This document shows positions 6,589-61,617 of a stretch of DNA of 64,000 nt, in pieces. Numbering within the stretch: position 1 is the first letter of the stretch; the number at the start of each line of letters is the position of its first letter. The position numbers and the translations under genes were made by a program. Source of the stretch: Macrostomum lignano. Taxonomy: Eukaryota. The notes beneath the pieces were generated by a model that was given only the letters and a program-made list of their open reading frames with translations, did no database searches and was not told the origin of the DNA. Where the stretch lies: the NCBI GenBank assembly GCA_002269645.1, contig NIVC01001165.1, positions 282,261 through 346,260 of the forward strand, written 5' to 3'.

Positions 6589-9500
6589 TCAGCCCAGCAC
6601 AGAGGCGGTGACGGCCACGCCCCGCTCAAAGAACTGCGTAGCCGTGTTTGGCTCCTCAGTGGGGAAGGTGAGGGTGAACAGCAGCTGAGCCCTGGTGGAG
6701 TTCAGGTACACAGGCAGACTGACTGAGCTCTCAGGCGGCGGCTTCTTGTAGGCCTCGTGCCTCACCCAGCAGATCTCGGTGCGGGCCAGCTCGCTGCTGA
6801 TGCTGTTCACCAGGCGGAGCTTGTTGTCGGCGCACTCGGCTCCCATGAGACGCAAGCCGTGCACCACGAAGGTGCTGGCATCGGGCGGCGGGCCGTCAGC
6901 AGCTGGACGGACCTTCACGTCCAAAGTGAGCTCCTCCAGGGCCCAGCGGTTGCTCTGGGCAACGGTCTGCCTGGTGGCGGTGATGTAGGCCTCGGGCATG
7001 AAGAGGCCGCCAAGCCACACGGGAGCCAAGCGAAGCGACTCAATGCCGCCCTTGGCAACCAGATCAGAGATTCGAGCCATCTGCCGGACCCGCTCGGCAA
7101 AGTCGGCAACCCACTGGATGGCGGTGAGCCCAGCTGGCACTGTGTACTTCTTCCAGCCAGCCGGTATGAGGCTCTTCTGCAGGTCCGCCATCATCTTGCG
7201 GTGATGATTTGTCGGCTTGCGCTCCGCCGCGCACACTGCCGCCACCTCGCTGAGATCTTTGCGCACCGCGGCAAGCAGGTTGGCAGCTGAGGTGACCTCG
7301 CGCTCGAAGCAGCGGAACAGCGGATCCTTGATGTTCTCGGCTGTGCGGGCCATGCGGCGCAGGTCCTTGGGCAGCTGGCCCAGCCAGTCATTGGCCTGGT
7401 TGCACAGCTGCCGCATCCAGGCCGGCCTGGCGTCGCCCGCGTTGCTGATAGTGCGCTGGCGACCGCTGACCACCAGGTCTTCGTCATCTTCAACGTGCTG
7501 CATCTGCATCACCTTGCCCAGCATCTCTTGGCCTGAGTTAAAAGGGGGAAGAAGAACACAAGACTGACATGGACTTTTGGTTTACTATTTTTGTTAGTAA
7601 AGTTTAAATTGGCGCAATAAATTTTTACCAGTAATTCAAATTCGCGCCAAAAATTACGCTGTCTGGATTTTTGTTTTACATTATAAAAAGGTGATAGCTA
7701 TATAGAGAGGAAAAAAACAAATATTGATTTATCAAGTTTTAAATTTAAAACAATTTTTGTTAAACTACTTGAGAAACTTTTTGGCGCGAATTCAAATTTT
7801 TGAAAAACAATGTTAAAACCAGAGGAAAAACTGCCTTCCAGTGTGTACATAGTATGTACAATTGCATTGATTTTTGACGAAAGAACTTGTACCGCACCTC
7901 AGAAGGAATATACGGAGAAAAACTGCATTACCTACCATGAAACTCCTTAAGAACTACAGAACATAGGATCGTATAAATATGGTAATGAGAGGAAAAACCG
8001 CTTCACCAGTCGAACTCCACCTTGAGTATAAATATATACAGGTGTTTTCATATTATCCCAAATAGACTGTGAATAAGACAGGAATGCGTGACTGTACCGC
8101 CTTCATCTTTCTCGTCCTCCTCCAGCAGGTCAAGTTTCAGCAAGTCTTTCACAAGTCGAGCCGCTGTACAGAACAAAATTCAATTCAATTCAAATTCAAA
8201 TTCAATTAGTGTAAGTGCGCATCTTGACAAAACTTAATTAAAATACAAAAAGGCGCATATTAAACAATAAAATGTGGCTGTCTCAGCGTACTGCAGGGCA
8301 CACTGGAGTCGGTGATACGCAGAGCAGCATAGAAAAAGTCAGCCCCAGCATCCTGAGCTTCATCTGCCACAGCTAGGGAACGCCTCAGAAAGCTACTTAA
8401 GAAGCTGACTGGGAGCTATACGTGGACAAATTCAAAGAGCTGATGATAGTTAAAAAGAGATTTAATAAATTTAAATTTGATTTTCGATACATATCCGCAG
8501 AATGAATAAATTGAAAAATAACAGCCCACCTACTGATTCTAGCGTTGGTGCAACTCAAATTAAAAGGCCTTGTCTGACTGCGTACTAACCGCGATTAGGT
8601 TGGCTTAACCTGCTTACAAAAACGATATGATACTTTATTTGATATGATAACTAATACTTTAATTTCAAGGGCACTGACATTGAGAAATCAGAGTGCATGT
8701 GGCTGTCTCAGCGTACTGCAGGGCGCACTGATGTCAATAATACGCAGAGCAGCATAGAAAAAGTCAGCCCAGCATCCTCAGCTTCATCTGCCACAGTTAG
8801 GGAACGCCTCAGACAGCCAATTTAACAATGCAGGCTACTGGGAGCTGTCTGTGGACCACATGGAATCTCATTCATTACACTTGGCTACTCACACTACTGC
8901 AGCTCAGTAGTATCTGAGACTGTGAGCGATCTGATCCCCAGCCCCACTAGCTACTCGCACTACTGCAGCTCAGTAGTATCTGAGACTCTGTGAGCCCCGC
9001 AGCGGACAGCCGCAGACACGCAGGCAGCGAGTCTCTGAGGCAAAAATGCCGCACAGGGCCGCCAACCGTCTGCCACAGAAGGAAAGCCTCGCTCGGCCAC
9101 TGGGCGGAGATGCTGCTGCCGCGGTGCCGGCCAGGGGCAAAATGTGGCCTAGCTTTTTGTTATTTTCAAGTTACAACTAAAAGAGCTTGAGCACGGGGAA
9201 GGGGGATCTAGAACACGGGAGTATGGGGATCTAGAACACGGGAGTATGGGGATCTAGAACACGGGAATATGGGGATCTAGAACACGTGAATATGGGGATC
9301 TAGAACACGGGAGTATGGGGATCTAGAACACGGGAGTATGGGGATCTAGAACACGGGAGTATGGGGATCTAGAACACGGGAGTATGGGGATCTAGAACAC
9401 GGGAGTATGGGGATCTACAACACGGGAATATGGGGATCTAGAACACGGGAATATGGGGATCTAGAACACGGGAATATGGGGATCTAGAACACGGGAGTAT

Positions 9501-33500: not shown

Positions 33501-36500
33501 TGAGTGCCTGTGGCGCTAGAATGAGTGCCTGCGGCGCTAGAATGAGTGCCTGCGGCGACAAAATGAGTGCCTGCAGCGCTAAAATGAGTGCCTGCGGCGC
33601 TAAAATGAGTGCCTGCAGCGCTAGAATGAGTGCCTGCGGCGCTAAAATGAGTGCCTGCAGCGCTAGAATGAGTGCCTGCGGCGCTAAAATGAGTGCCTGC
33701 GGCGCTAAAATGAGTGCCTGCGGCGCTAAAATGAGTGCCTGCAGCGCTAGAATGAGTGCCTGCGGCGCTAAAATGAGTGCCTGTGGCGGCTAGAATGAGT
33801 GCCTGCGGCGCTAAAATGAGTGCCTGCAGCGCTAGAATGAGTGCCTGCGGCGCTAAAATGAGTGCCTGTGGCGCTAGAATGAGTGCCTGCGGCGCTAAAA
33901 TGGGTGCCTGTGGCGCTAAAATGAGTGCCTGCGGCGCTAAAATGAGTGCCTGTGGCGCTAGAATGAGTGCCTGCGGCGCTAAAATGAGTGCCTGCGGAGC
34001 TAGAATTAGTGCCTGCAAAGCTAGAATAAGTGCCTGCGGAGCTAGAATGAGTGGCTGCACAGCCAAAATGAGTCCCTGCGGCGCTAAAATGAGTGCTAAC
34101 AATACCAATTCTCAAAAAATTTAAAAAATGTGCAAACTCCTTGGCTTTGTCCTCTCCCCACCATAAAACTCATGGAGACGCCCCCGCTTAATGACATACA
34201 ATGTTCAAATTCAGTAACCCAATAAATCATGTAGTCGGTCAGGCACTACTCTCACCTTCTGTATCTCTTTAATCCACCTGGTAACGCCAGATTGCAACGC
34301 GTTGAGAAACTGCGAGTCCTCAATTTTATCTTCAAAATCCGTCACCTTGGGCCGGCGGCCTTCTTCGTTGCACTTTTTAATGATTGCGGCAACAATCGGG
34401 TGCGGAGTGAGGGTGATCTCAGGTATGTCAATATTCTGCTGCAGGTGAAGCAGGTTGATCTCCAAGTCCGCAATCTTCTTCTCAACAGCAGGTGCGAGTT
34501 TGTCGCCGTCTCTGCATGATTCAAATTTATAGATATATGTTTAAACCACAGGTGAAGCTTAATGGAGTTTTACGTTTAGCGACCATGTCACAACCGGCAA
34601 GAGGCATTACTCTGCCTATTCAGCAGTCATACGCACAGGCACACAATCACAAAGTAGTATAAAGCGGCCCCTAACTTTATTTATCGTTAGGCATGTACAC
34701 AAAAATCGCACGACCAGAGCCAAGCCGAGACTCCAATTTAGCCCCAAATTAATGTGACTGAACTTAGGAATCGAGCCTGGGCACACTAAAACTGGAAATT
34801 TCTCAGTCTCACTTCTCACATTGCAGATATATAAAAAATTAAGGCACTACAGCTAGAAGCGATGCAGCTAGGTGAGAATGCTGGTGGTGAGAAAAGTTAT
34901 CAGGCATTATGCAAATGGGTTTGCATGCAAATGCAGTCATAATGCAATTGATAATGGATATTGTTCAAGTGCAAGAGACACTCAAATCAAATCTTAGATC
35001 AAATTAAGCCAAATTTTATGCCTATAAAATTAGGCTCTCTAATCAGCTAAAACTAGCAGAGGTGAATTCTGCACAAACAATCAATTAATAAAATTGAAAT
35101 AAAAAAAGCAGGATTAATTTTATTGCTATTTCATATTAATAATTATTAAAGAAGCAGACAACACTAGAAAGTAATGAAAGAAGAGCAATTCAAAGATTCA
35201 GCACAAATTTTATGTTAAAAAGTTTGTAAATTTTAATTTCCACTGCAGAATCTTCTTTATGTCAATGAAAATTAAGCATGCAAATAGAAAATGAGTCACA
35301 TCGATAGATAAGAAGGAAAACATAGTGTTCATTACTAATCTGACATAATGATATAACTAGACAGCAATTATAATACCTGCCAATGCCATGCCTATGAAAT
35401 GGTTGGGGTGAGTAAGGTGTCAAAGTGATTGTAAGTAAAAAATGCAATTTATTATTATTATTTTATGATAATTAAGTTGGCTACTAACCATAACTATTTA
35501 GTGTGAAAACAATAATAGTATAAACAATATAAAAATCAGGGGCACAAACATTTTTTTCTGAAAACATCGTACCAAAACCGGGCACTAAATTTGCTTCTAC
35601 CCATATAAGACACCAAATATCATTTAAAAATCTGAAAGTGGGATGGTCACATTTTTTGCGACAGTCAAAAATTTGACACTGCCTGTCACGCTTGTGATAG
35701 TCAAGTGTGACCGTGACGTGACTGTCAGTTAATATCGTGACCGTCAATGTGACATTCAAATAAAGATTCCCTCATGCGACCGTCAATGTGACCCTCAAAT
35801 GTTACAGTCATGTGACCGTTAAAAGTTACAGTCATGGACCGTCAATATGACCCTCAAAAGTTAGTCATGTGACCGTCAATGTGACCCTCAAATGTGACAG
35901 TAATGTGACTGTCAATATCAATATGACCCTCAAATGTGACAGTCATGTGACCGTCAATATCAATATGACCCTCAAATGTGACTGTCATGTGACCGTCAAT
36001 ATCAATATGACCCTCAAATGTGACAGTCATGTGACGCTCAAATGTGACAGTCATGTGACTGTCAATATCAATATGACCCTCAAATGTGACAGTCATGTGA
36101 CCGTCAATATCAATATGACCCTCAAATGTGACATTAATGTGACCGTCAATGTGACCCTCAAATGTGACAGTCATGTGACTGTCGATGTGACCATCCAATG
36201 TGAAAATTAAAACTGTCAGATCTGAGGGGTCACAATTAAGGGTCACATGTGATGCTGTTGTTTGAGTGCGACATAACGGTCACGCAGTCAAAATGTGACC
36301 ATCCCAATTATAAACGGGTCAGCTTATATCAGTTTAGCTACTAGATAATCGCATTTGACAATATTTTGATGACTTTACTACTAAGGACTGGTAGATCCGC
36401 CCTTTTTGGAGGTGGGGTGGGTGTCAACCCTCCTCGCCTCTCATTGGCTGGCGCGCGCGCCGCAGGCGCGTGGCGCTATCCAGGCGCCAATTAGGCGCCC

Positions 36501-39500
36501 ATGCCGCAGGCGCACCCTCCCGATATGTACCCGATATGTATGCCCTCCCTCCCGATATGTATGCCCACCCTCCCGATATGTACCCCGATATGTATGCCCA
36601 CCCTCCGATATGTATGCCCTCCAGAGCAGCAGGCGCCCATGCTGCAGGCGCCCATGCCGCAGGCACCCCGAGTGTACACTCTACCGAGCCGCAGGCACCC
36701 CGAGTGTACACTCTACCGAGCCGCAGGCACCCCGAGTGTACACTCTCGCGATATGTACACTCTACCACTCTCCCGATATGTAAGATATCTAGTCAGCGAT
36801 ATTAGGCTAGTGAAAACTACTTATAGTAGATGAAATTGCGTATATTTACATAAAAAGTAGATAAAACATATTGGTAGGTGTGAATAATGACGCATAATAC
36901 ATATTGGACCATATGAGCAGCAAAAACACACAATGTAGGTGCATGGGCAGAAATAGACAAAGCAGGTACTGTAGGCGCTACATAGGTGGAAATACACACA
37001 GTATATTGCACACACTCTAGATTCCAATTATGTAGGTGCATACATACACACAATGTAGGTGCAAATTGAGTATAATACAAGAAAATTACATAGCATATAA
37101 TGTAGGCGCATTTTAAACGATACATTTTTGCATAATAACCCGCAGGTACAAATTTCAGTGCATAGGATAAAATACACACACTGGAAGTTAAGTATAATAC
37201 AACATATGTATGCAAAATTAAGCATATAATGTAGGTGCAAAGTAAAATATCCAGCCCAGGATATTCGAGACACGCCCCCAGAGCCAGGGCCGGGGGATCC
37301 CAATGTACAGTGCGGGCGGAGTAACAGAGAAATTCCTCCCCAGGGCCGGGGGATCCCAAGTACAGTTCAGGCAGAGAGCATTCCAATCCTCCCCAAATGG
37401 GGGGTTATCAAGGACCCCTCACATTGCACAGGGCGGGCAGAATAACAGACCGCATACAAATAGGGGTTTTAGCGGATCCCAAGTACAGTGCGCTCCCGGG
37501 TGTCAAATGATGAAGGAATCCCGCCCCCCAATGCACAGTGCGCTCCGGGGTGTTAAATGAGGAAGGATCCCGCCCCAATGTACAGTGGAGGTAGAGTAAC
37601 AGACCGCATACAAAGAGAATTCCAGTCAAACTTTACCGCAGCTCCCACGGGGTTTTAGTGGATCCCCAGAGGGTAGCTCTCCAAGTTGAGGGATCCCCCC
37701 AGTGTGTTGCGAGGCCCAAGTACAGTGCATGCAGAGAGTAACAGAGTACAAAGAGAAATTCCCTTATCAGTCAAACTCGAGCGCGATCTTCAGCCAGGGC
37801 AGTCTCCTCCTCATCAGCGCTCTCGAAACATCTGTCAAAGTAAAAAATATTCAATGTAGACAGATTATATGTAATTTATATACGATTTATATGAAATTAA
37901 GCTTACCAAAAATCGGGTTCGCGCTGTACGGATGCGGCACGCCTCAATTAGCAACCCTCGTCAAACAGATTTCCCCAAGGGTAGGGTTTGATGCTGTCAA
38001 GGCAGTCCTGCAGATTGTCCTCTGTCTTGACTCGCTTGGCTGGAGGGGGTGCCTCAGGTGCCGGCTTGAAGAGCTTGTCCAAACGGGCGGCAAACATCCT
38101 GCGCCACAGTTCAGGCGTGAATTCGATCGTGTAGCGCCAATTAAACTTTGGGTCCTGATTGAGCCAATTGCGCAGCAAACGGATCCTCCCTCGCGAAGCT
38201 TCAACTGCCTTGAAATTGCCCAACAGGACCCGCTTGTTCACGTGAAGGCGGGCAGCAGCCTCCAGGTCAGGGCGCGCAGCTTCGAGCTTCTTCCACTCTG
38301 GCTCGCTCAAGTAGATTGCAGGGAAGCCGTCCTTCCACACTCCGGCCTCGTTGGTGTAGAGACGCCGAATTTCAATCAAGTTGTGTTCAGTTTCAAATGT
38401 GGGCTTCCGCGCCACAAAGTTTTCGTATAGAGAGATAGAAGACATGATTTAGCAGCAGCAGCAGCAGAGAGCTCTCTAACAGCCGTGCAGCGCCTTATAT
38501 ACCCCCGGATGGAGGGTGGGGTGGGTGGTGATTTTGGGGGTGATTTTTGATGATTTTGGTTGGTTTTTGGCGATTGACCAATAACAGGCGAGCTGAGCAG
38601 ATTTTTTAGTATATATACAGACCCCCAGAGCCAGGGTAGAGAGATAATCCTTCTCTCTCCGCTCGCTCTCTCACGCTCTCTGTTTGCAAAATGGCTAAAC
38701 GCAGCGCCAACGCAACTGCTTTTCTGGCTGACAAGAGGCAACGTCTTTATGGTAAGTTTTAATTAATTTCTGTCTAGACTGTAGTTGCTAGGGTGGGGGT
38801 AGGGGCTGAGCAGCAGCAGCAGCTGCAGGGTCTGTGGGACCGCAGAGTAAACAACAAAGACTGCTGCGACAGCTGCAGGGGTCTAGACTGGAGTTGCTAG
38901 GGTGGGGTGCTGCGGCAGGGTCTGTAACAGAGAGTTGCAGGGGAGGGCTAGACAAGTTACAGCCGGGTGTGTGCTGATAAGAAATTGCTGCTAGGGGGTG
39001 TTGTCCAGACAGGTTGCAGCTGGGGTGCAAATTGCTGCGACAGAGAGTTGCAGGGGTGAGTAAACAAAGACTGGGGTGGGGTGTTGTCTAGACAGGGAGG
39101 GGTGTGCTGATAAGAAATTGCTGCAAAAACAGACAGTTGCTAGGGTGCTGCGGCAGATAAGAAATTGCTGCAGAATCGTTGGGGCGGGCTAGACAAGTTA
39201 CAGCCGGGTGGGGGCAGAGAGTTGCTGGGACAGACTGGGGCTGCAGATAGGGCGCTACCCAGACAGGCTGCAGCTGGGGTGCAAATTGCTGCGACAGAGA
39301 GTTGCAGGGGTGAGTAAACAAAGACTGCTGCGACAGGCTGCAGCGGGGGTGCAGATAAGAAATTGCAGAGTTGCTGCGGGGACAGCAGAGTAAACTCTGT
39401 TAAGAAATTGCTGGGGCTAGGGCGGGGAAACACGCTGGGGCCAGGAAAATGACAGATTCTTCTGGTTTTTTATCTCCTTGTGTTTTTTCAGACGCGTTTG

Positions 39501-42500
39501 TCCCGCCAACACAGCCGGAATCTGTTACCGGACCGGGTGAGTTATCCCGCCCCCCATTTCCCACACAGACCCTGGCTGACTCACACTCCCCCATTCCCCC
39601 ATGCAGGTTTTACGGCCCGGCTGGATAATCAACGCGACCTGCCCAAGTTTAGGGCAAAGGGTGTCGAGTATGTGGTGCGTATTACCAACACCGAAGATTT
39701 GCGGGAGGTGTTTGCCGACATGCTCGAAGTTTTCAAGCAAGATTTGGCTGGTGATGACTTTATGGCCGCGAAATTCGAGAGCGACAACATGCTCAAAGCG
39801 GCCCACACTCCCCCGGTGCGTGCAGCCCGCATGACGGCTGAATTGTTGTTTAAGCACATTGACAAGATTGTGCAGTCAGACGCAAGCGTACTGTCGAGCA
39901 ACTTTTCTATCCGTCTGCTAAAAGCCTGGGTACCTCGAGGTGGATGTGCTCTCGAGAACAGGCATCTAGAAGAGAGGCACGCTTTTTCAAAGCACTATGT
40001 CCGCATCACCAACTCGGACAAGAGATGCCTGCTGCGCGCTCTGGTCGTGGCCTGCGCCTACCTGCAATTCGTGGCCAAGTCCATCACCGAGAAGGTGTGG
40101 CGCACGATCAAGGCCAATTCGCCCACGCAGACTAAGCTGGTGGCTGAGCTACAAATCGAGGCAGGCCTCTACACGGTAAGTTTCTAGTATTTTTCTGATA
40201 AGAATTTTTACGCAGTATCATGGAATACTAATATTTTCTGATAAGATTTTTACACAGTATCATGGAATACTAAAAGATATATTTTCTGATAAGATTTTTA
40301 CACAGTATCATGGAATACTAAAAGATATATTTTCTGATAAGATTTTTACACAGTATCATGGAATACTAAAATTTTCTGATAAGAAATTTTACGATAAGGA
40401 ACACTAAAAGAAATATTTTACCCTCCACACAGACTCTTCAAACCGTCTCGCAGGCTGGTCCTTTCGGCGTGGATGCACTGCCCGAAGCGATCCGTGCCCT
40501 GAACCGGCTGCATCCGGGGCGCGATTTTGGTGTACGCGTGTACCGCGCAGAGGAGGCCAACAGGTGCATCTTCAACCTGCCTGGCACCGAGATTCTGCAC
40601 CTACACCTGGTCGAGCAGCACTTTAATGTGGTCACCAAGCTGCCTGCGTTTTTCGGCTCCGATCACTACTGCCCCAAGTGCGAGATGGCCTACGACTGCA
40701 ATTATGAGAAGCACAAGTGCGCTGATGCCTGCAGTACATGCAAGACTCCGGGCTCCAACTGTAAGGCAAACCGCGCATATGTAAGATGCCATGATTGCGG
40801 GCTAAATTGCTATAATGCTCAGTGCCTAGAAAATCACAAGCGCAAGAATAAGGCCGGCAGATCGCGCTGTGATTCGGTCCACGTTTGCGGCACGTGTGGC
40901 TATCTAGAAGAACTAAAAGTAGGCCAGCCCCCTGAGCATCAGTGTGGTTATGCCAAGTGCCCAGTCTGCAAGCAGTACGACGAAACTGCCACCCACGAGT
41001 GCTTTGTCACCCCGCCCAAAGCCAAAGAGTCTAGCGCCCCGTATGTTTACTATGATTTCGAGACGTACTTGGACTCTGACAAGCAGCACCGGGTACACTT
41101 GGTTACGGCTGCCACCTCCTGCGAGGCGTGTCCCAAACTCTTCCCCAGGCCCCGCTGCAGCGCGTGCGGGGGACTACACAGCTCAGCCAATTGCATTGCG
41201 GGACGCAATCTGGCGCTGGATTTTACGAGCTGTGTCTCGCACAATGACTGTGCCTGTGGGATGCGAGAGTTTGTTTCGGTTGGGCCGCACTCTATCGATG
41301 CCTTTTACTGCTGGCTGACTAGTGTGTTCAAGCAGGGGGCAATTGCAATTGCGCACAATGGCTCTGCGTATGACGCATTCCTCCTGCTCGGCGCCCTACT
41401 CAACGGACTGGCCAAGAAGAAGCCGCAAGTGATCTTCCAGAACAGCCGCCTAATGTACATGAAGTGCGACAAGATCACCTTCAAGGACAGCCTCAATTTC
41501 ATCCCTATTGGTCTGGCGCAATTCCCAAAGGCGCTTGGTTTGGGCACCCAACTGACCAAAGGAGATTTCCCGCACGTGTTCAATCAGCCTCAAAATTGGG
41601 GGTACGTCGGTCCCTACTGCTCAATTGATATGTACGGCGGGAAGAAGAATAAGCAGCATGACTCCATCGCCGACTGGCTGGCCAAGCAGGAGGGACAGGT
41701 GTTTAATTTTAATAAGGCGTACCTGGACTACTGCCTGCAGGACACGTTAATTTTGCGGGAAGGCTGTCTAAAGTACACCCGCCTGATTAAGGACATTTGC
41801 GGACTGGACGCATTTGTCCAATCCAACACCATTGCGGGCTTGGCTATGGCTGTTTTCACCACCAAGTTTATGGAGCCCAACACTCTTGGGGTGATTTCCC
41901 GCCGGTCCGATGTACAGTCGCACAAGGCGCGGTGCTGGCTTGCGCATTTGAATGCGACCGAGTTTGGCGGCCGGTTGCGGACAGCGGACTCGGGCGGCGA
42001 GGCTTTCGCCATGGGCCGTAAGGTCGACGGCTTCGACCCAGAGACCAGGACAGTGCTGCAGTTTCATGGCTGCTTCTACCATGGCTGTCCCAAGTGCTTC
42101 CCCAACGGCGACGTGCTGCACCCGCTCAAGAACCAGCCAATGCGGGCGATTTATGAGGAGACTGAGCGCTTCACCCGGCTGCTCTCCACTGCCTACAATG
42201 TGCGTGTTCTGTGGGAGCACGACTATCAGGACGAGGGAGCGCCAGTCCAGCAGCCTATCCGCCTGGAGGATGCCCTGTTTGGCGGCCGTACCGAGGCTTT
42301 TGTCCCGCACGCCGAGGCCACCGAGACTGTAGAGCTGCGCTATCGGGATGTGGTAAGTTTGTACACTTGTACACACAGTTGACATGCGTTTGAGTTTATC
42401 TTATCCTCTAATTCTCTATTATCCTTATACTTATCCCCTAGGTGTCGCTCTACCCGACTGTCAACAAGTTTGACAAGTACCCGGTCGGGCACCCGGTACA

Positions 42501-45500
42501 CCACCCCGAGCCTCATCTACTGGATGAGCTGCAGCTGGCCCGGTATTTTGGCATCGCCGAGGTGTCGATTCTGCCGCCAACCAATCTCCACATCCCGCTA
42601 CTGCCCGCCAAGATTAACAAGAAGTTGGTTTTCGGCCTCTGCCGCGTCTGCATGGAGACCCAGTGCAGCAGCGAGTGTACACACACTGACGCTGAGAGAA
42701 TGCTCCGCGGCACGTGGTCGACCCCAGAGCTCCACAAAGCCCTGCAGTTGGGTTACAAGCTGCAGTCAGTTCATGCCCTGGCCTATTGGACCGAGACTCG
42801 CACGGGTCTGTTTGCAGATTATGTAAACACTTTTTTGAAGCTCAAAGCCGAGTCTAGCGGTTCGCCGGGGATGGCTGAGGACGCCAAGGCTGCCTACATG
42901 GCCAGCTTTTTCGAGCGCGAAGGCGTCCGGCTGGAAAAGGTGGAAGAAAATCCTGGCCTGCGCTTTGTGCCAAGATTTTTCTAAACTCGTAAGTTTTTCT
43001 ACTTGCAGTGGGGACCATGTTTTTCTACTTACAGTAGCCAGATATACAAAAATTTATTTTTTCCCTGCAGGCTCTGGGGCAAATTCTGCCAGCGCGACGA
43101 CCTGACCTCCACAGAGATTGTGGACAGCTACGAGGCGTGGCTGCAGCGCCTGACCGACCCCTCGATCAAGGTCAAGTCGTGCGAGCCAATTGGGGAGAGC
43201 TTCATGATGCTCGAGTACAAGCCCCGATTTGGCGGTGCTGGCGAGCGGGCGTTCAAGTACGCTAATGTACCTATTGGCGTTTTCACCACCTCCCACGCCC
43301 GGCTGCGACTCTACGAGGCTCTGGAGGGTCTAGGAACCCGAGTCATTTACGCCGATACCGATTCGTATGTAATTTTTTCACTGTATCTGTCTCTCTTTCT
43401 CCCCTTAACACTTTATTCTCCTCCTCCTCCCAGGGTTGTATACCGCTGCTCCCCGGGCGAGTACGAGCCTCCGGGCGGTTCGAGTTTGGGGCAGTGGACT
43501 GACGAGGTACCTGCTGGCTGCCGCATGGTACAGTTCACCACGGGAGGCCCCAAGCTCTACCGGTACGTGGTGGAGAAGCCCGACGGGTCGCTGTACTCGG
43601 TACTCAAGTGCAAGGGCATCAGAGTCACGCCCGAGATTTCCGAGCGCGAGGACGAGCTGCAGGAAATTCTGCGTCACGGCGGGACTGTACGCCTGCCCCA
43701 GGCCCAGTTCAGGCGCGATAAGGCTAGCTGTACAATCCGGACCCTCGAGATGGACAAGACTTTCCAGCGCGTAATGACTAAGAGGGTGTATGGGGCCGCT
43801 AGCCGCCCGTATGGCTTTCGGGAGTGAGTGAAAGATAAGGATCTGTCTTTTTACGCCTGGGATTCCCCTATGTGCCCACTTGGGATCCCTTGACTCGTGG
43901 GGATGAAAATGGTTTTACACCCGCATTGTACTTGGGCCTCGCAACACACGGGGGGATCCCTCAACTTGGAGAGCTACCCTCTGGGGATCCACTAAAGCCC
44001 CGTGGGAGGTGCTGTAAAGTTTGACTGGAATTCTCTTTGTATGCGGTCTGTTACTCTACCTCCACTGTACATTGGGGCATCATTTGACACCCGGGACCGC
44101 ACTGTACTTGGGATCCGCTAAAACCCCTATTTGTATGCGGTCTGTTATTCTGCCCGCCCTGTGCAATGTGAGGGGTCCTTGATAACCCCCATTTGGGGAG
44201 GATTGGAATGCTCTCTGCCTGAACTGTACTTGGGATCCCCCGGCCCTGGGGAGGAATTTCTCTATGTTACTCCGCCCGCACTGTACATTGGGATCCCCCG
44301 GCCCTGGCTCTGGGGGCGTGTCTCGAATATCCTGGGCTGGATATTTTACTTTGCACCTACATTATATGCTTAATTTTGCATACATATGTTGTATTATACT
44401 TAACTTCCAGTGTGTGTATTTTATCCTATGCACTGAAATTTGTACCTGCGGGTTATTATGCAAAAATGTATCGTTTAAAATGCGCCTACATTATATGCTA
44501 TGTAATTTTCTTGTATTATACTCAATTTGCACCTACATTGTGTGTATGTATGCACCTACATAATTGGAATCTAGAGTGTGTGCAATATACTGTGTGTATT
44601 TCCACCTATGTAGCGCCTACAGTACCTGCTTTGTCTATTTCTGCCCATGCACCTACATTGTGTGTTTTTGCTGCTCATATGGTCCAATATGTATTATGCG
44701 TCATTATTCACACCTACCAATATGTTTTATCTACTTTTTATGTAAATATACGCAATTTCATCTACTATAAGTAGTTTTCACTAGCCTAATATCGCTGACT
44801 AGATATCTTACATATCGGGAGAGTGGTAGAGTGTACATATCGCGAGAGTGTACACTCGGGGTGCCTGCGGCTCGGTAGAGTGTACACTCGGGGTGCCTGC
44901 GGCTCGGTAGAGTGTACACTCGGGGTGCCTGCGGCATGGGCGCCTGCAGCATGGGCGCCTGCTGCTCTGGAGGGCATACATATCGGGAGGGTGGGCATAC
45001 ATATCGGGGTACATATCGGGAGGGTGGGCATACATATCGGGAGGGAGGGCATACATATCGGGGTACATATCGGGAGGGTGCGCCTGCGGCATGGGCGCCT
45101 AATTGGCGCCTGGATAGCGCCACGCGCCTGCGGCGCGCGCGCCAGCCAATGAGAGGCGAGGAGGGTTGACACCCACCCCACCTCCAAAAAGGGCGGATCT
45201 ACCAGTCCATAGTAGTGACTTTATCATGAGCTCACCGATCAGACTTGCCGCTCTCTCGCATGTAGGATTTGTAGTAGGGTCCAACAGCGTGGCTAATGAA
45301 CGAGTGCAGAGTCTCGTAGGGTGAACCATCGCCAAAGCTGAACACGCGCAGTTGAGCAGAGAAGCCTTTGTCAGCTTCAACAAACGGGCCGCGTTTGATG
45401 AGGACAACACTGTGTGGAGACAATTTCGGTGCTTATTTCTTAGTTTTAAGACAGTAGCTTTTGTATTAAACTAAATCTGATACAATTGACACTGCATACC

Positions 45501-48500: not shown

Positions 48501-51500
48501 GCAAAAGGGTTAGGTAAGTCGCAAAAGGGTTAGGTAAGTCGCAAAAAGGATTAGGTAAGTCGCAAAAGGATTAGGTAAGTCGCAAAAGGATTACGTAAGT
48601 CGCAAAAGGGTTAGGTAAGTCGCAAAAGGGTTAGGTAAGTCGCAAAAAGGATTAGGTAAGTCGCAAAAAGGATTAGGTAAGTCGCAAAAAGGATTAAGTA
48701 AGTCGCAAAAGGGTTAGGTAAGTCGCAAAAAGGATTAGGTAAGTCGCAAAAGGATTAGGTAAGTCGCAAAAGGATCAGGTAAGTCGCAAAAGGATTAGGT
48801 AAGTCGCAAAAGGATCAGGTAAGTCGCAAAAGGATTAGGTAAGTCGCAAAAGGGTTAGGTAAGTCGCAAAAAGGATTAGGTAAGTCGCAAAAGGATTAGG
48901 TAAGTCGCAAAAGGGTTAGGTAAGTCGCAAAAGGGTTAGGTAAGTCGCAAAAAGGATTAGGTAAGTCGCAAAAGGATCAGGTAAGTCGCAAAAGGATTAG
49001 GTAAGTCGCAAAAGGGTTAGGTAAGTCGCAAAAAGGATTAGGTAAGTCGCAAAAGGGTTAGGTAAGTCGCAAAAGGATTAGGTAAGTCGCAAAAAGGATT
49101 AAGTAAGTCGCAAAAAGGATTAGGTAAGTCGCAAAAAGGATTAGGTAAGTCGCAAAAAGAAGCAACTAAGTCGCAATAAGAGGGAAGTAAGTCACAATCA
49201 GAGGCAATCAGGGGGTAGTAGGTGCAAGTGTGGCAGGAGAGCAAAAACAGAATAGAAGCCTTCAACAACAGACAAGATCTTTGAAATCAGAAGCCCGCGT
49301 CAACAGTTTCCCATTGATTTCTTAAACTCTGGAGCAGGGGTTGGCAAACTCCGGCTCGCGAAGCCCCTCTATCTGGCCCTCGCCCCTCGGGTTCTTTGAA
49401 ACTTCCTAACTACGAGGGGCGTCCGGAAAGTAGTGTTACTTTTGCTTGGTGTGGACGTGTGGACGGTCACACTTGCATGTGCTTGGTGTCATTTGAAAGC
49501 GGCAAGTCTCTTCTTTAGAATGACACCAATTGCAAGAGATTTGAATCTGTGCTTCAAGAGATATGGACGATTAAGTAGAGAAAGGTCAGTCATAGACTTA
49601 CAGAACCTCAAAAATGTCAACAGAAAACTTTTACGATTTTATCGATTTTTTCGTAATCATGGGCTGTCTATGGCCAAATGTGATGCAGTGAACGAGAGGG
49701 GCTGTCTCATAAAACTACGAGACTTGTAAAACTGCTTCTGCTGCGCCTGCAAAGTTTATTGACATTCAATTTTCAATTGTGAACTGCAAATGGATGTGCA
49801 TTCAAAGACTGGGCAGCGACATGCCATCTTTACACTTTGGAGCTCCGGAACCAAATCGGCTGACATCCACAGGCAACTCTGCACAGCTCATGGCGACCAT
49901 GCTGTCAGCAAGATGACAAGTCTGCCAACCGATGAATGATTTTAATGTTGTTCGCTTGTGTGATAATTTGCTTGTTATCTGTTTCACCTGCTTCTGTACT
50001 GTACTGTTGTGTTTTTTGTTTTTTCTGGAGTAATTACGCTCGTGATAAAAGTTTTCTGTTGACATTTTTGAGGTTCTGTAAGTCTATGACTGACCTTTCT
50101 CTACTTAATCGTCCATATCTCTTGAAGCACAGATTCAAATCTCTTGCAATTGGTGTCATTTTAAAGAAGAGACTTGCCGCTTTCAAATGACACCAAGCAC
50201 ATGCAAGTGTGACTGTCCATACGTCCACACCAAGCAAAAGTAACACTACTTTCTTAAGGTTGGTAACATTACTTAGGTTGGTGTCTCTTCAACTCTCATC
50301 TCTCTCTTCTTCTCTACCTTGCCTCCCCTCTTCTCTCTCTCCCCCCTTTTCCCTCTTCTCTCTCCTCTCTTCTCCTCCTTTCTCTCTACCCTTTCTCCTC
50401 AATGCCCTCTTCTCTCCTCTTATCTTCAGCAAAAATATGTGCATATTTTCTTACTTCAAAGTAGAGGGAATAGAAGATTAGAGATAAGCAAACAGAGGAG
50501 AGGCGAGCGATGCGATGGGAGAAAAGATAGAAGAGGAGAGAAAAGCTGAGGGAGGAAAAAGAGATGAGAGAGAAGAGGAGATGAGAGGAAAGAGGAAAGA
50601 AAAGATGATGGATGAGATCAGAAGAGAGGAAAGAGGAAAGAGAAGAAAGTAGATGAGAGAAGAGAGGATAAAGAGGAGATGAGAGGAGAGTGAGAGAGGA
50701 GAGATGAGAGAGTAGAAAAGAGAGGAGAGATAAGATGAGAGAGTAGAGTGGAGAGAGACGAGAGGGAAGATAAGATGAGAGAGTAGAGTGGAGTGGAGAG
50801 AGACGAGAGGAGAGATAAGAATGTAGAGAGGAGACAGAAGAGATAGGAGAGGAGAGAGGAGAGAGGAGAGGAAAGAGAGAAGGGATAAGGGATGAGAGAG
50901 AAAAGAAAAAGAGGATGAGAAGATTGAGGAATGGAGAGAATTTGCAAAGGCCTCAAATCTTAGTTTAACATGCATTACTCCCATCTTTGCCTTTTTCCTA
51001 ACTGTTAACAAGTTTTTGTTTGAGCATGACTTCAAATTTAGAATCTATGCAAAAATAGTTCCGGGAATTGGAATTCAGTGGTTTCAAAATCTGTGGGTTT
51101 TCACAGCTTGTATCTCTACTGGATTCGTATTCTGCATCTGATGAGCCATCTGAATCAGGGCTCTCATCTTCCATGCCAAATCGTTCTTGAGCTATAGGTC
51201 ACACTGTATTCACTTCACTTACTTCTGGACATTCATGAATCATGACTTTTGTAGTATGCTCACTACACTGTACTGACAACTTACTAATTGCTTCATGCCG
51301 CCACTAGATGACATACTGATTAGCTGTTATAAAAACGCCGAATCTGCACGCAGCACTAATTAGCTGGCGAGGCATTTAGCTTTTAAAATATGGTCATAGT
51401 TACTCCTGCCGTTTACCTAAAGTTTTTGCTAGGCTCTTTCATAGGTAAGTCGCATTTTTTATCGAAAACTAAGTCGCACGGCCAGCGTAATTTCAGAAGT

Positions 51501-57328: not shown

Positions 57329-60300
57329 TGTTGTGGGTTGATGGCTTTGCCATAGACATTTTTGTTACGCGACTGCGTTGATGAATTGAACCATGCTATT
57401 AAGTTATGAAATAAATAATAGACGCGTCAGAGGTCAACAGACCGCTAGACTGACAATTGCTAAAGGCTAAAGCCAAAAGCACAACAGTGGCGTCGGCAAG
57501 CATAGGCTACGAAAATGCCTGGAAGTACGCCAGCATCGCCAACTAAAGGAGTTGGTAAAACGGTTTCGAGCGACAAAGCACCACCGCTTGCGATCTCGTC
57601 GAAATCAGTCCAAGCGACAAAGTCGGCAACAGCGACTAGTACCCAAGCGCACAAGTATCGAGAGGACAGCAAGTTGACATCGAAAAACTTGATGAAAGTT
57701 CGAACTTCCAGAGGTGGTTGGACCGATTCACACTGTGCAGCGAACTCAACGGCTGGCAGGACGACACGAAAAACAAGCTGCTGCTGATGAAGCTCAGCAC
57801 CAAGCTGTACGACGCATTGGCAGATCGAGCCGCTCCCAAGAAGCCGGGAGATAAGAGCTTCGATGAACTGACCAAACTACTGGCCAGCATCCTGGAACCA
57901 AAGACGTTCGTCATGGCTGAGAGATTCAATTTCCAGCATATCACTCGCACGGCATCAATGAGCATTCGTGAGTATGCACAGCAACTCTGCATGCAGGCAG
58001 ACAAGTGTCAGTTTGGCCTATCCAGAGATGAGAGACTGAGAGATCAGCTCGTATTCGGTTTGAATGACAAGGTGGCCATCAGCAAGTTTTTGGAACTTGG
58101 CGCACCAGAACCTATCACAAACGCAAATACTAAAGGGTTGCACCAGTCAGCCGCAGTCTTCTGAAGTAATGAAAATTTCAGCATCGGTGACCAGAGGCTC
58201 CCACTCTACAAGCTCCAAGTGTGGCAGATGTGGCACAATGCATGGCTCCAATGGAGGGTGTCCTGCGAAAGGAAAAACGTGCAACAAATGTGGCATGCAA
58301 AACCACTTCGCAACAGTTTGCAAAACGAAATCAACTGGTTTTGGCAAAGGCCGAAAATCGTTCAAAAGCCCGCCAGCATCTGGTCAATTTAGGCGAGCTG
58401 CAGTGTGCCAAGGACCACAAGCTTTGTAGATGCAAGCGAAGCTGAACAGGAGGATTGTTTTCACATTCGACATCCCGTTGATAGCTACACCGTGCCTGTT
58501 AGGCTCAGACACACGAGCGGGTCGATGCTTAGCGTGAACGCACAAATCGATACTGGGGCAGGAGTTTCGGTAATGTCAAAAACGATCTGGAAACGATTGG
58601 GTTGTCCAAAGCTGACACCTACAGACACTGTTCTGACAACATACGCTGATACGCAGATGAAGGTCTTTGGAACACACGACACTGAGTTGGAGTACAATGA
58701 TGAGTTCATTCCAATCACATTCTTCATTGTGGAATCGCAGAGGAACTTTGTTCTGTTTGGCCGAGACAAGCTCAATTTCACGCTAAACGCTGTAGACAAC
58801 AGCTGCACATCGGCAACCCAGTCATGCGAATTTCCACCAGTAACTCTTAAGATCAAGGAAGGAACCACTCCAATTCATTGCAAACCCAGGCCGCTACCCT
58901 TCGCACTCAGACAGGGAGTCAAGGATGAAATCGATCGGTTGCTTGAAGAAGACACCATCAAGCCCGTCAAGTTCAGTGAATGGGCCTCACCAATTGTCGT
59001 GGTCAAGAAACCTTCTGGAAAGCTCAGACTTTGCGTCGACTACAAGGTGACAATCAATTCTCATCTTATCAACGATTCATATCCGATGCCTGCACCTGAC
59101 GAAGTGATTGCAACTGCTGCTGGCAGCCGGATATACACTCGTCTGGACCTAGAGAAAGCTTATCACCAGATCCCACTAGATGAAGCTTCCAAAGAGCTGA
59201 CAGTAATGTCAACACCATTTGGGATGTTCGCTTTCAACAAGCTTCCGTTCGGAGTGAAAACAGCACCTGCGATCTTCCAGCGGTACATTAGCCAAGTCCT
59301 ACAAGGAATTCCTGGCGTCATTGCCTACGTAGACGACATATTGATATGCGGCAAAGGCGTAGAACAATTGGCAGTTCGTGAGACGGAAGTATTGCATCGA
59401 CTAAACCAGCAAGGATTGAAGATCAACACGGCGAAAAGTGAATTCCGCAAGACTTCGATCAAGTTTCTAGGCTACTTATTGGAAGGAGATCAGCTCAAGC
59501 CGGACCCAGCCAAAGGAAGGCAATCCAGGACATGACACCACCGCAGAACGTTGGCGAGCTTGAATCCTTCCTGGGTCTCGTAAATTTTAGCGGCAAGTTC
59601 ATCAGAAACCTAGCTGCACTGACCAAGCCTCTCAATCGACTAAGAAAGAAAAATGAGGACTTCGTGTGGACAAAGGAGTGTCAAATAGCATTTGACGAAA
59701 TCAAGGTCACCTCTCTGATCAATCGAGTCTTCAAATATTTGATCCGGAGAAGCCCATTGAACTGGAATGCGACAGTTCTCAGCGAGCTCTGGGCGGAGTG
59801 TTGACACAAAGCGGTCAAGTCGTGCTGTACATGAGCAAGACTCTGTCTGACGCCGAAACAAAATATTCGCAAATAGAGCGTGAAGGCCTGGCACTGGTTT
59901 GGTGCATTCAAAGATGCCATCGGTTCTTGTATGGCCGGAGGTTCACACTGATAACTGATCACCGGCCCCTCACATGCATATTCGCGCCAGACAAACAGCT
60001 GCCCACCAGAGTTTCAGCTCGACTACAACGATGGGCAATCATGCTAGCTGCTTATGACTATGTCATACAGTATCGACCATCAAAGCTAATGCTGTCGGAT
60101 GCGCTATCTCGACTGGTGCCCGCTAAGCCGAATGCACAGACAGCATCGATTGGACTCCTCGAAGCTGACAACCCGGGAGTAATTCAGCTGGATCGCATTG
60201 CACACGCAACCAGAGAGGACCCGGAGTTCAGATGCCTGGGCGCAGCCATAATTAACAATAATCTATTTGACGACCCACACCTACTCAGCTACTCGAAGGT

Positions 60301-61617
60301 TCAAGATGAGCTAACTGTCAATGATGGAATTATTTACAGAATGAACAGAATTGTATTGCCTCGTGTCCTGAGAGAAACTGCCCTGGCAGCTGTACACTCA
60401 ACGCACCTTGGGGTGGAAAAGTCAAAGTCAATTTTGAGGGAACAGTTCTGGTGGCCACAGATGGACCGTGACATCGCTGACTACATTGGACGATGCAACG
60501 TGTGCAACGCGTACAAGTCCAGAAATAAGAACTTTCGGCACTCGTGGCCAGAACCTGACAACCCCTGGAAGCGAGTGCACATTGATTTTGCCGGTCCGAT
60601 AGAGGGCAAGTACCTACTCATCATTGTGGATGCGCACTCGAGCTACCCGGAAGTCTTCATCACGAGCGACATGAAGGCCGACACAGTCATTTCCAGACTT
60701 AGAAGATTGTTCTTACAACAGGGGGTGCCCAAGTGTCTCGTGTCAGACAATGGCCCTAGTTTTGTGAGCGAAGCGGTGACCGGCTGGCTCACCCAGATTG
60801 GCTGTTCGCACATCACAACGCCCGCCTACCATCCACAGAGCAACGGCATTGCAGAGCGAATGGTGCGAACCGTCAAAGAGACAATCAAGACCAATGGTTT
60901 ATCCCAAAGAAGTATTGACAGATTTCTACTGTTCTACAAAGCTGCCAAAGGGAAGCAGCAAGCATCACCGTCCGAGTTGTTGAACGGCAGGCAAATAAGA
61001 CTCCCCATCTCGGAGAGCAGCACTCAGTTCAAGTGGATCCCAGAAGAATCACTCATCTACCGTGCATCGAGTTCTCATGAGCCACGAACTGTGAGATTCG
61101 CCAAAATGCTTGGCAGCAACACAGCAGTCGTCACCACAGAGACTGGACGAAATCTAAAGACCCACCTCGATCAACTACGAATCGGTGAGGTACCTGAGGC
61201 TCACGGAACTACGGAAATGGGGGATTCCAAGCCCGGTGGCAACGGTCCAAGTGACGACGGCCAACAGACGCGTCCGTCATCGACAGACACTGAGATACTA
61301 CCGGGAACAGAACAAGCTGAGAGAGCACAACAGCAACAGACTGAGGTTGGAGTTCAATCCAAGCCGTCACCCAGGCGAAGCGAACGCTTGGCCAAGAAAA
61401 CTAGAATTTTTTATCGCACCTGAGTGATAATTGTACACCTACCTATAGAAGAGGGAGGGTGTTGTGGGTTGATGGCTTTGCCATAGACATTTTTGTTACG
61501 CGACTGCGTTGATGAATTGAACCATGCTATTGAGTTATGAAATAAATAATAGACGCGTCAGAGGTCAACAGACCGCTAGACTGACAATTGCTAAAGGCTA
61601 AAGCCAAAAGCACAACA
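57329..61617 (+). mobile_element. Ty3/Gypsy LTR retrotransposon, Mag-like, full length
   Basis: 158-bp LTRs (57329-57486, 61460-61617) with TGTTGTG...CACAACA ends and one mismatch. 5-bp TSD AGTTT. PBS-like TGGCGTCGG at 57488. PPT AGAAGAGGGAGGG at 61447-61459. Confidence 0.95.
57515..61423 (+). pseudogene. gag-pol polyprotein of the Gypsy element, broken by about 5 frameshifts
   Basis: Gag Zn-knuckle region CGRCGTMH...CPAKGKTCNKCGMQNHFATVC, protease IDTGAG, RT YVDD, RNase H CDSS, integrase HLG/CxxC/IDFAGP/SDNG/SNGIAER, distributed over ORFs at 57515, 57718, ~58200, 58405, 59532 and 59798. Confidence 0.88.

Follow-up and report, generated by a model that had tools for sequence, protein, structure and literature searches.

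We describe a small integrated element, here called a mini-Polinton, at positions 36377 to 45216 of a 64,000-nucleotide stretch of Macrostomum lignano DNA (assembly GCA_002269645.1, contig NIVC01001165.1, positions 282,261 to 346,260; referred to below as the window), together with the two multi-copy families, A and B, that it and its closest relatives form. These elements keep a family B DNA polymerase of the protein-primed kind (pPolB) that is under selection, are bounded by long terminal inverted repeats (TIRs) together with target-site duplications (TSDs) of 6 bp, and lack the integrase and virion genes of Polintons (Mavericks). The interpretation that we favor, at a probability of roughly 60%, is that they are self-replicating satellites that are integrated in trans by the integrases of resident full-length Polintons.

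The window element and its insertion site

The unit is 8,840 bp long, GACTTT abuts each end, and its termini read 5′-ACTACTA...TAGTAGT-3′. The TIRs, of 1,352 bp (36377-37728) and 1,294 bp (43923-45216), make up 30% of the element and are identical at 1,284 of 1,290 aligned bases, apart from small indels and one indel of 60 bp. An earlier note, made from the letters of the window alone, had claimed this unit with its perfect 6-bp TSD and TIRs of about 1.3 kb at some 30% of its length, and re-reading the boundaries bears it out. The insertion lies in an intron of the host cytoplasmic dynein 1 heavy chain gene, about 19 nt in, after the exon at 45235..45432, and the flanking dynein exons match consecutive stretches of a solved dynein protein. 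This exon is present three times in the assembly; because the two other copies (G000:C2158 and C136) are empty sites with a single GACTTT, the window element is a clean and recent insertion with a real 6-bp duplication. The features of the locus are as follows.

34214..34540 (−): next host dynein exon, closing the element-bearing intron (phmmer E=2e-36, residues 170-260; continues from about residue 174)
36371..36376 (+): left TSD copy, GACTTT; single copy at the empty sites
36377..37728 (+): left TIR; starts ACTACTA, with a variable stretch at its positions 8-27, a conserved block at 28-78 and internal short tandem repeats
37948..38445 (−): gene for the PC4-like protein, 165 aa, a probable single-strand DNA-binding protein (Pfam, BLASTP and substitution pattern)
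38446..38690 (no strand): 245 bp separating the two divergent start codons, where a two-way promoter is presumed
38691..38751 (+): pPolB exon 1; GT donor in 17 of 17 other copies, joint seen in one of four runs
39492..39536 (+): pPolB exon 2 (splice-site conservation and spliced contigs)
39607..40175 (+): pPolB exon 3, with terminal-protein-like domain and vOTU Cys; conserved Ser in IVQS at 39867, DKRC at 40017
40433..42352 (+): pPolB exon 4, with vOTU His, Cys-rich region, exonuclease motifs I-III, Vsr-like insert and start of motif A
42442..42988 (+): pPolB exon 5, frameshifted near its end in the window copy; stop at 42982-42984, before motif B
43071..43364 (+): pPolB exon 6, from the end of motif B to motif C (splice-site conservation and spliced contigs)
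43434..43827 (+): pPolB exon 7 (splice-site conservation and spliced contigs)
43923..45216 (−): right TIR; ends TAGTAGT
45217..45222 (+): right TSD copy, GACTTT (sequence)
45235..45432 (−): host cytoplasmic dynein 1 heavy chain exon (phmmer E=5e-20, dynein residues 113-173)

The two genes are divergent, with the PC4-like gene at 37948-38445 (−) and pPolB at 38691-43827 (+). The product of pPolB exon 4 matches Pfam DNA_pol_B_2 (PF03175) with E=3e-14, and the closest database proteins, 90-98% identical, carry the UniRef label Macrostomum lignano. An AlphaFold model of a database protein from mini-Polinton family B (pLDDT, the model confidence score, 76.5) finds its best matches in the phi29 and adintovirus polymerases. 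Its N-terminal region has a sheet-plus-two-helix pattern in which an almost invariant Ser precedes the last strand; a conserved Cys and His come next, and the window pPolB has the same three residues. These features fit the descriptions of the terminal-protein and vOTU domains in PMC11161782 (papers are cited throughout for their accessible sections), and Pfam, model and residues together point to a protein-primed family B polymerase with both domains. The Vsr-like insert has its motif at 42023; a near relative is labelled Vsr endonuclease by its source, and in both mini families the consensus Glu is replaced by Gln.

The PC4-like protein falls under the Pfam cut-off for PC4 (E=0.034) and has a BLASTP match (E=2e-9) to a resident full Polinton's PC4, which itself hits Pfam PC4 at 1e-7; in pooled copies the proportion of synonymous differences (pS) is 0.045 and that of nonsynonymous ones (pN) 0.020, a weaker constraint than in pPolB. 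The polymerase, terminal-protein region and PC4-like, probable single-strand DNA-binding protein that the earlier note saw as retained are thus all kept, and all selected. The window copy is not intact, a point that the note missed: its pPolB has a one-base frameshift near the end of exon 5, leading to the stop at 42982-42984; the frameshift is absent from all 17 other copies read and is either a private change or an assembly error.

Two families of mini-Polintons

The window element belongs to family A, whose end motif occurs 230 times in the genome (control 0), corresponding to about 115 elements if each has two. Among 100 of these motifs that were listed, 74 pair into 37 elements and 26 are unpaired; 32 pairs span 8.0-10.6 kb, four are shorter, and one spans 40.6 kb, with a full Polinton beginning within intron 1. 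We fetched 17 other copies, 15 of which have both ends resolved, all with a perfect TSD of exactly 6 bp and flush ends, at 14 distinct sites, as expected from the claim that this is a multi-copy element with independent duplications. Complete copies read are 8.5-10.1 kb long.

Six of the 17 copies have a third gene behind PC4, ORF3 (an open reading frame, ORF, of 336 aa; L047:333-1343), with an acidic low-complexity N-terminal part, a long hydrophobic C-terminal helix and 92 matches in the genome. It gave no Atlas hit and has relatives only under the same species label, and its structure model is helical at low confidence (pLDDT 47). Unbroken variants differ by 10-11 synonymous and 2-3 amino-acid changes, so that ORF3 is, judged by selection on its sequence, a real gene.

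Family B has the end ACTACGTA, 109 end motifs in the genome, and is about 63% identical to family A in exon 4. The 100 motifs listed give 34 pairs, of which 18 span 9-11 kb, 12 are shorter and four are longer (>11 kb); five family-B-ended elements each have their own 6-bp TSD. Three of the four oversized pairs were examined and contain nested LINEs (long interspersed nuclear elements) or a Plavaka-like, probable CACTG-ended transposon. The latter (L128:4647-9374) has a Plavaka-like ORF and a CIDE-N ORF and is nested in a family-B derivative. A larger autonomous form was not found among the listed family-A pairs or in these three oversized family-B pairs. Neither translated search nor substitution pattern revealed a second gene in family B, where two short frames near 2.2-2.7 kb show equal synonymous and amino-acid change; a small spliced gene is possible. 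The two-gene layout proposed in the earlier note is therefore that of the window element's subfamily, and does not extend to the six copies with a third gene or to family B, which shows only the polymerase.

Absence of integrase and virion genes

No RVE integrase, major or minor capsid, packaging ATPase or protease is present. A Pfam scan of 23 ORFs, taken from the TIRs, from intron 1 and from other frames, gave no hits of any kind, and when 101 ORFs from five full-Polinton stretches were compared with the minis the sole match was one PC4. Across 15 copies, none of the other frames lying outside or opposite the pPolB exons has a substitution pattern of the coding type. Genes hidden in the TIRs or intron 1 are ruled out by the Pfam scan and the substitution pattern, and almost no unexplained coding space remains; the claim that integrase and capsid are missing stands.

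Selection and splicing of the polymerase

The pPolB splice sites are conserved in all 17 other copies, and an unbroken frame of 1,276 aa with three exonuclease and three polymerase motifs is present in ten; the other seven have scattered small frame-breaking indels, which may in part be assembly errors. The ratio of nonsynonymous to synonymous substitution rates (dN/dS) in exon 4 of family A has a median of 0.10 and a range of 0.04-0.22 (101 of 105 pairs from 15 copies, leaving out one copy with compensating indels, two with length changes, and four pairs with five or fewer synonymous differences). Family B gives 0.08-0.12 (15 pairs, six copies), and in the comparison of A with B dN is 0.29 and the synonymous sites are saturated. 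The genes that remain are thus not decaying neutrally, and with splice sites, open frames and multiple copies with their own TSDs this agrees with the view in the earlier note that the element is not a product of random decay.

Contigs from public sequencing runs show GT..AG joints at all six pPolB introns. Introns 2-6 are skipped at GT..AG in three runs, from three studies, that are guessed to be RNA, and one of these also skips intron 1; within single contigs, exons are joined over several introns. Because no genomic mini copy read lacks introns we take these joints as transcripts, with a caveat about the nature of the runs that is weighed below. As to the RNA-sequencing check proposed in the earlier note, spliced contigs exist, in runs that are guessed to be RNA, and joints 2 and 3 are shared by a run guessed to be DNA.

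Origin of the lineage

In a FastTree phylogeny of polymerases (39 sequences, 778 columns) families A and B form one clade with support 1.0, amid animal Maverick-type polymerases that have the Vsr-like insert and are 31-40% identical; named polymerases just outside are from a pipefish, a sea spider, a sea anemone and a beetle. The polymerases of four resident full Polintons are only 20-23% identical to the mini pPolB. The mini polymerase has 97 matches in the genome, every one of them in A or B (95 of 177 candidates scored), and a full-length fish relative used as query found A, B and one decayed intronless copy (35 of 414 scored). We considered that copy, at C234, as a parent and rejected it, as the tree groups it away from the minis. 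A search of 1.84 billion representatives returned best matches of 28-40% identity, apart from A/B-like gene models (57% and above). Among viral contigs a single-protein query found no relative, and an alignment query found two loci, of which the one read is a full Polinton-type contig. The mini DNA has no similarity to resident full elements except in nested copies, and no surveyed resident autonomous element has TIRs or internal sequence in common with it.

Since A and B make up a single clade, with synonymous sites between them saturated, and are so distant from the resident polymerases, the loss of integrase and capsid in this lineage appears, on these sequence comparisons, to be old. It would predate the A/B split or run parallel to it, and the minis did not arise by deletion of anything found in this genome. 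This agrees with the earlier claim that the element is no simple internal deletion of a resident Polinton; no same-ended parent was found.

Element ends and the candidate helpers

Family-A ends read ACTACTA in 32 of 32 cases, and the ends of the minis overall start 5′-ACTACT or ACTACG. All ten integrase-bearing loci examined have AGTAGTA at the presumed end (mostly with one end seen), as do three further full-Polinton loci without an integrase in view. The end pattern of the main integrase family has 235 matches in its AGT form and two in an ACT version, against 11 in the control. The earlier note had predicted a helper with the same ACTACT termini, and this prediction failed: no ACT-ended helper was found among the 13 full-Polinton loci (ten with integrase), by pattern, where ACT is at chance level, or in the three oversized family-B pairs.

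Matches to Polinton-type integrases nonetheless number at least 115 in the genome, and most of them are free of stops (114 of 2,318 candidates were scored in this survey, and 91 of 974 in the corresponding pPolB survey). The resident full elements are 16-17 kb long and have integrase (Pfam rve), ATPase, TBP and PC4 genes; further ORFs are read, from position and motifs, as capsid and protease. One full element of 16.8 kb has a verified 6-bp TSD. A genome search with Pfam Pox_A32 gave no matches despite the known resident ATPases, and was set aside as insensitive. The TATA-binding-protein (TBP) gene of these elements lies at L097:2367-2996 (Pfam TBP E=2e-23), with matching genes at C393, C2466 and C2301.

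Mini and full ends are alike in layout, with a fixed tip of 7-8 bases, about 18-20 variable ones and then a fixed block, and the ACT and AGT types have A-S-T-A-S and the terminal 3′ T in common. The G/C swap between them may confine each polymerase to its own template. TIR positions 8-27 (window 36384-36403) are constant in length and occur in 14 variants among 32 family-A ends, flanked by a tip that does not vary and a block that hardly does; family B and the AGT-ended full Polintons show the same pattern. The two ends match at these positions in eight of 16 family-A copies and differ in the other eight; the variability may reflect error-prone initiation or end exchange.

Three loci show nesting. 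A full AGT-ended Polinton starts within intron 1 of a mini at G000:C271 (L111-L113; chosen for proximity), another directly adjoins mini TIR sequence at G000:C106 (L122; not chosen for that), and at C1485 a family-B copy with its own TSD is nested in a family-B derivative. These could be shared replication sites or tolerated insertion spots. Mirror-arm derivatives, which resemble copy-back defective genomes, are found at G000:C126 (L128-L129), in the outer element at C1485 (L084-L085) and at C2301 (L116-L117); they include polymerase-less forms with family-B ends and the left arm on both sides, and a full Polinton whose integrase and virion arm is doubled head to head.

Other features of the window

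Long minisatellite arrays (for example 83 x 23 bp and 65 x 21 bp) fill the dynein and neighboring introns at 2000-34100. Two inverted-repeat pairs, 1446-1609 / 8453-8621 (about 7 kb apart) and 49426-49633 / 50046-50253 (208 bp, 412 nt apart), are probably other DNA transposons, and ORFs at 57640-61420 resemble, by eye, the gag, protease and reverse transcriptase/RNase H of a long terminal repeat (LTR) retrotransposon.

Discussion

In the satellite interpretation, A and B would be an old Polinton-derived lineage that has shrunk to its replication module. Host RNA polymerase II would transcribe and splice pPolB, of which spliced forms are observed, and, by analogy with adenovirus and phi29, the polymerase would set free its terminal protein, prime synthesis on the ACT-repeat ends and produce linear copies of the element through strand displacement; the PC4-like protein may, by a similar analogy, aid replication in family A. 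The polymerase would act mainly on its own ACT-ended elements, which may be the cause of the observed selection that keeps pPolB intact, and linear copies would be inserted, with a 6-bp duplication, by the retroviral-type integrase of the abundant AGT-ended Polintons. Copies with mixed ends and the mirror-arm derivatives fit recombination during linear replication.

Several observations weigh against this account. The ends of the minis differ from those of every candidate helper (ACTACT/ACTACG against AGTAGT at ten of ten loci), and its weakest step is that resident integrases would have to tolerate the G/C swap. The integrase survey covered part of its candidates. Family B is without detectable PC4, so this gene is not essential to the design, and the window copy would yield no full polymerase if its frameshift is real. 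None of the runs with spliced contigs is recorded as RNA, and the fourth, guessed to be DNA, also skips introns 2 and 3 but not 4-6. Packaging in helper capsids would be a bare possibility.

A bolder form of the interpretation, which we offer tentatively and hold to be doubtful as a whole, sees the minis as linear plasmids in the nuclei of an animal. They would belong to a Polinton lineage that shed capsid and integrase long ago, gained host-type introns and replicates as free DNA capped by terminal protein, with a flipped ACT end code that separates its replication from that of a helper and is still accepted by the helper's integrase, and perhaps by its capsid. Family B would then be the form reduced to one gene, and each family would have gene-less parasites of its own.

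The strongest alternative, which we nevertheless think unlikely, has the minis as long-term satellites of a cognate ACT-ended autonomous Polinton that is missing from the assembly, recently lost, intron-split and missed, or brought in as an outside virus. It would account for the lack of any resident helper with mini ends, the genome searches scored only part of their candidates, and an (AC)3A end in intact Mavericks of one fish (PMC8097293) indicates that AC ends can accompany a native integrase. Such a helper must be active now, since the empty sites indicate recent insertion, and it would be needed by two families whose ends differ; yet every scored match to the mini polymerase is in A or B, and the fish query added only the decayed copy outside the mini group.

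It is improbable that the minis insert without any Polinton integrase, through their own Vsr-like insert, an LTR or Ginger integrase, or host repair. The presence of that insert in pPolB and the lack of a matching helper speak for this; but the insert is also found in ordinary integrase-bearing Polintons, and in the minis it has Gln for the consensus Glu. LTR integrases need TG...CA ends, which the minis do not have, and host repair of linear DNA leaves ragged ends, whereas all resolved copies have exact 6-bp TSDs and flush ends like the resident Polinton. That the minis are ordinary internally deleted, non-autonomous Polintons with the polymerase as a passenger is very improbable and largely refuted: integrase-less pPolB-plus-TIR remnants are described in C. 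elegans (10.1101/2024.01.15.575659), and the window copy and seven of 17 others have frameshifts, but dN/dS is about 0.10 in both families, splice sites are kept, spliced contigs exist, and the well-supported A/B clade is remote from the resident polymerases and has no same-ended parent.

The minis resemble animal Polintons in the terminal protein-vOTU-exonuclease-polymerase architecture of pPolB, long TIRs, 6-bp TSD and short-repeat ends, and family A resembles the resident full Polintons in having a PC4 gene. They depart from Polintons in lacking integrase, capsids, ATPase and protease, in size (8.5-10.1 kb against 13-25 kb), in their six spliceosomal introns, where intact vertebrate Mavericks are intronless, and in their ends, (ACT)2 or ACTACG, where the vertebrate motifs listed in PMC8097293 are (AGT)2, (AG)3 and (AC)3A. 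Because the introns are spliceosomal, the minis must be transcribed in the nucleus.

Gene-less non-autonomous Polintons are present in Repbase. Capsid-less Polintons have also been described, nine of 72 lacking capsid, protease and ATPase (PMC4028283), and share with the minis a joint loss of the virion module and a transposon lifestyle; section 4 of that paper reports no loss of integrase, unlike the minis, in which it is gone and the polymerase still selected. For integrated Polinton-like viruses without an integration enzyme, trans use of resident Polinton integrases has been proposed (PMC4642659), the same mechanism that we suggest here. Those are capsid-encoding algal elements mostly without pPolB, the reverse gene loss, and the accessible sections describe no multi-copy TSD-bearing family of them. 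Yeast cytoplasmic linear plasmids of the pGKL type (PMC11161782) and transpovirons (PMC13348850) are likewise capsid-less, Polinton-derived linear replicons, and the yeast plasmids share the terminal protein-vOTU pPolB, the killer plasmid needing a helper plasmid (PMC11161782). They do not form chromosomal families of insertions bearing 6-bp TSDs, and the minis differ from them also in having spliceosomal introns and hence needing transcription in the nucleus. Our reading of the literature, with subscription papers, Repbase entries and supplements outside its coverage, found no integrase-less, capsid-less Polinton family with a selected polymerase.

The mini-Polintons are thus probably a self-copying, integration-dependent satellite lineage of Polintons. 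The definition of Polintons rests on polymerase plus integrase, and surveys demand several core genes and intronless ORFs (PMC10748475, PMC8097293, in the sections drawn on), so that elements of the mini type would be filtered out. The minis show that the replication module alone can persist for long in an animal as a selected, expressed and actively inserting family, and the lineage is a living parallel to the reduction that gave rise to the yeast linear plasmids. With their spliced transcripts and their home in a flatworm lineage kept in laboratories, the minis offer natural material for asking whether replication of Polintons passes through free linear DNA primed by protein, and which bases at the ends are read by their integrase.

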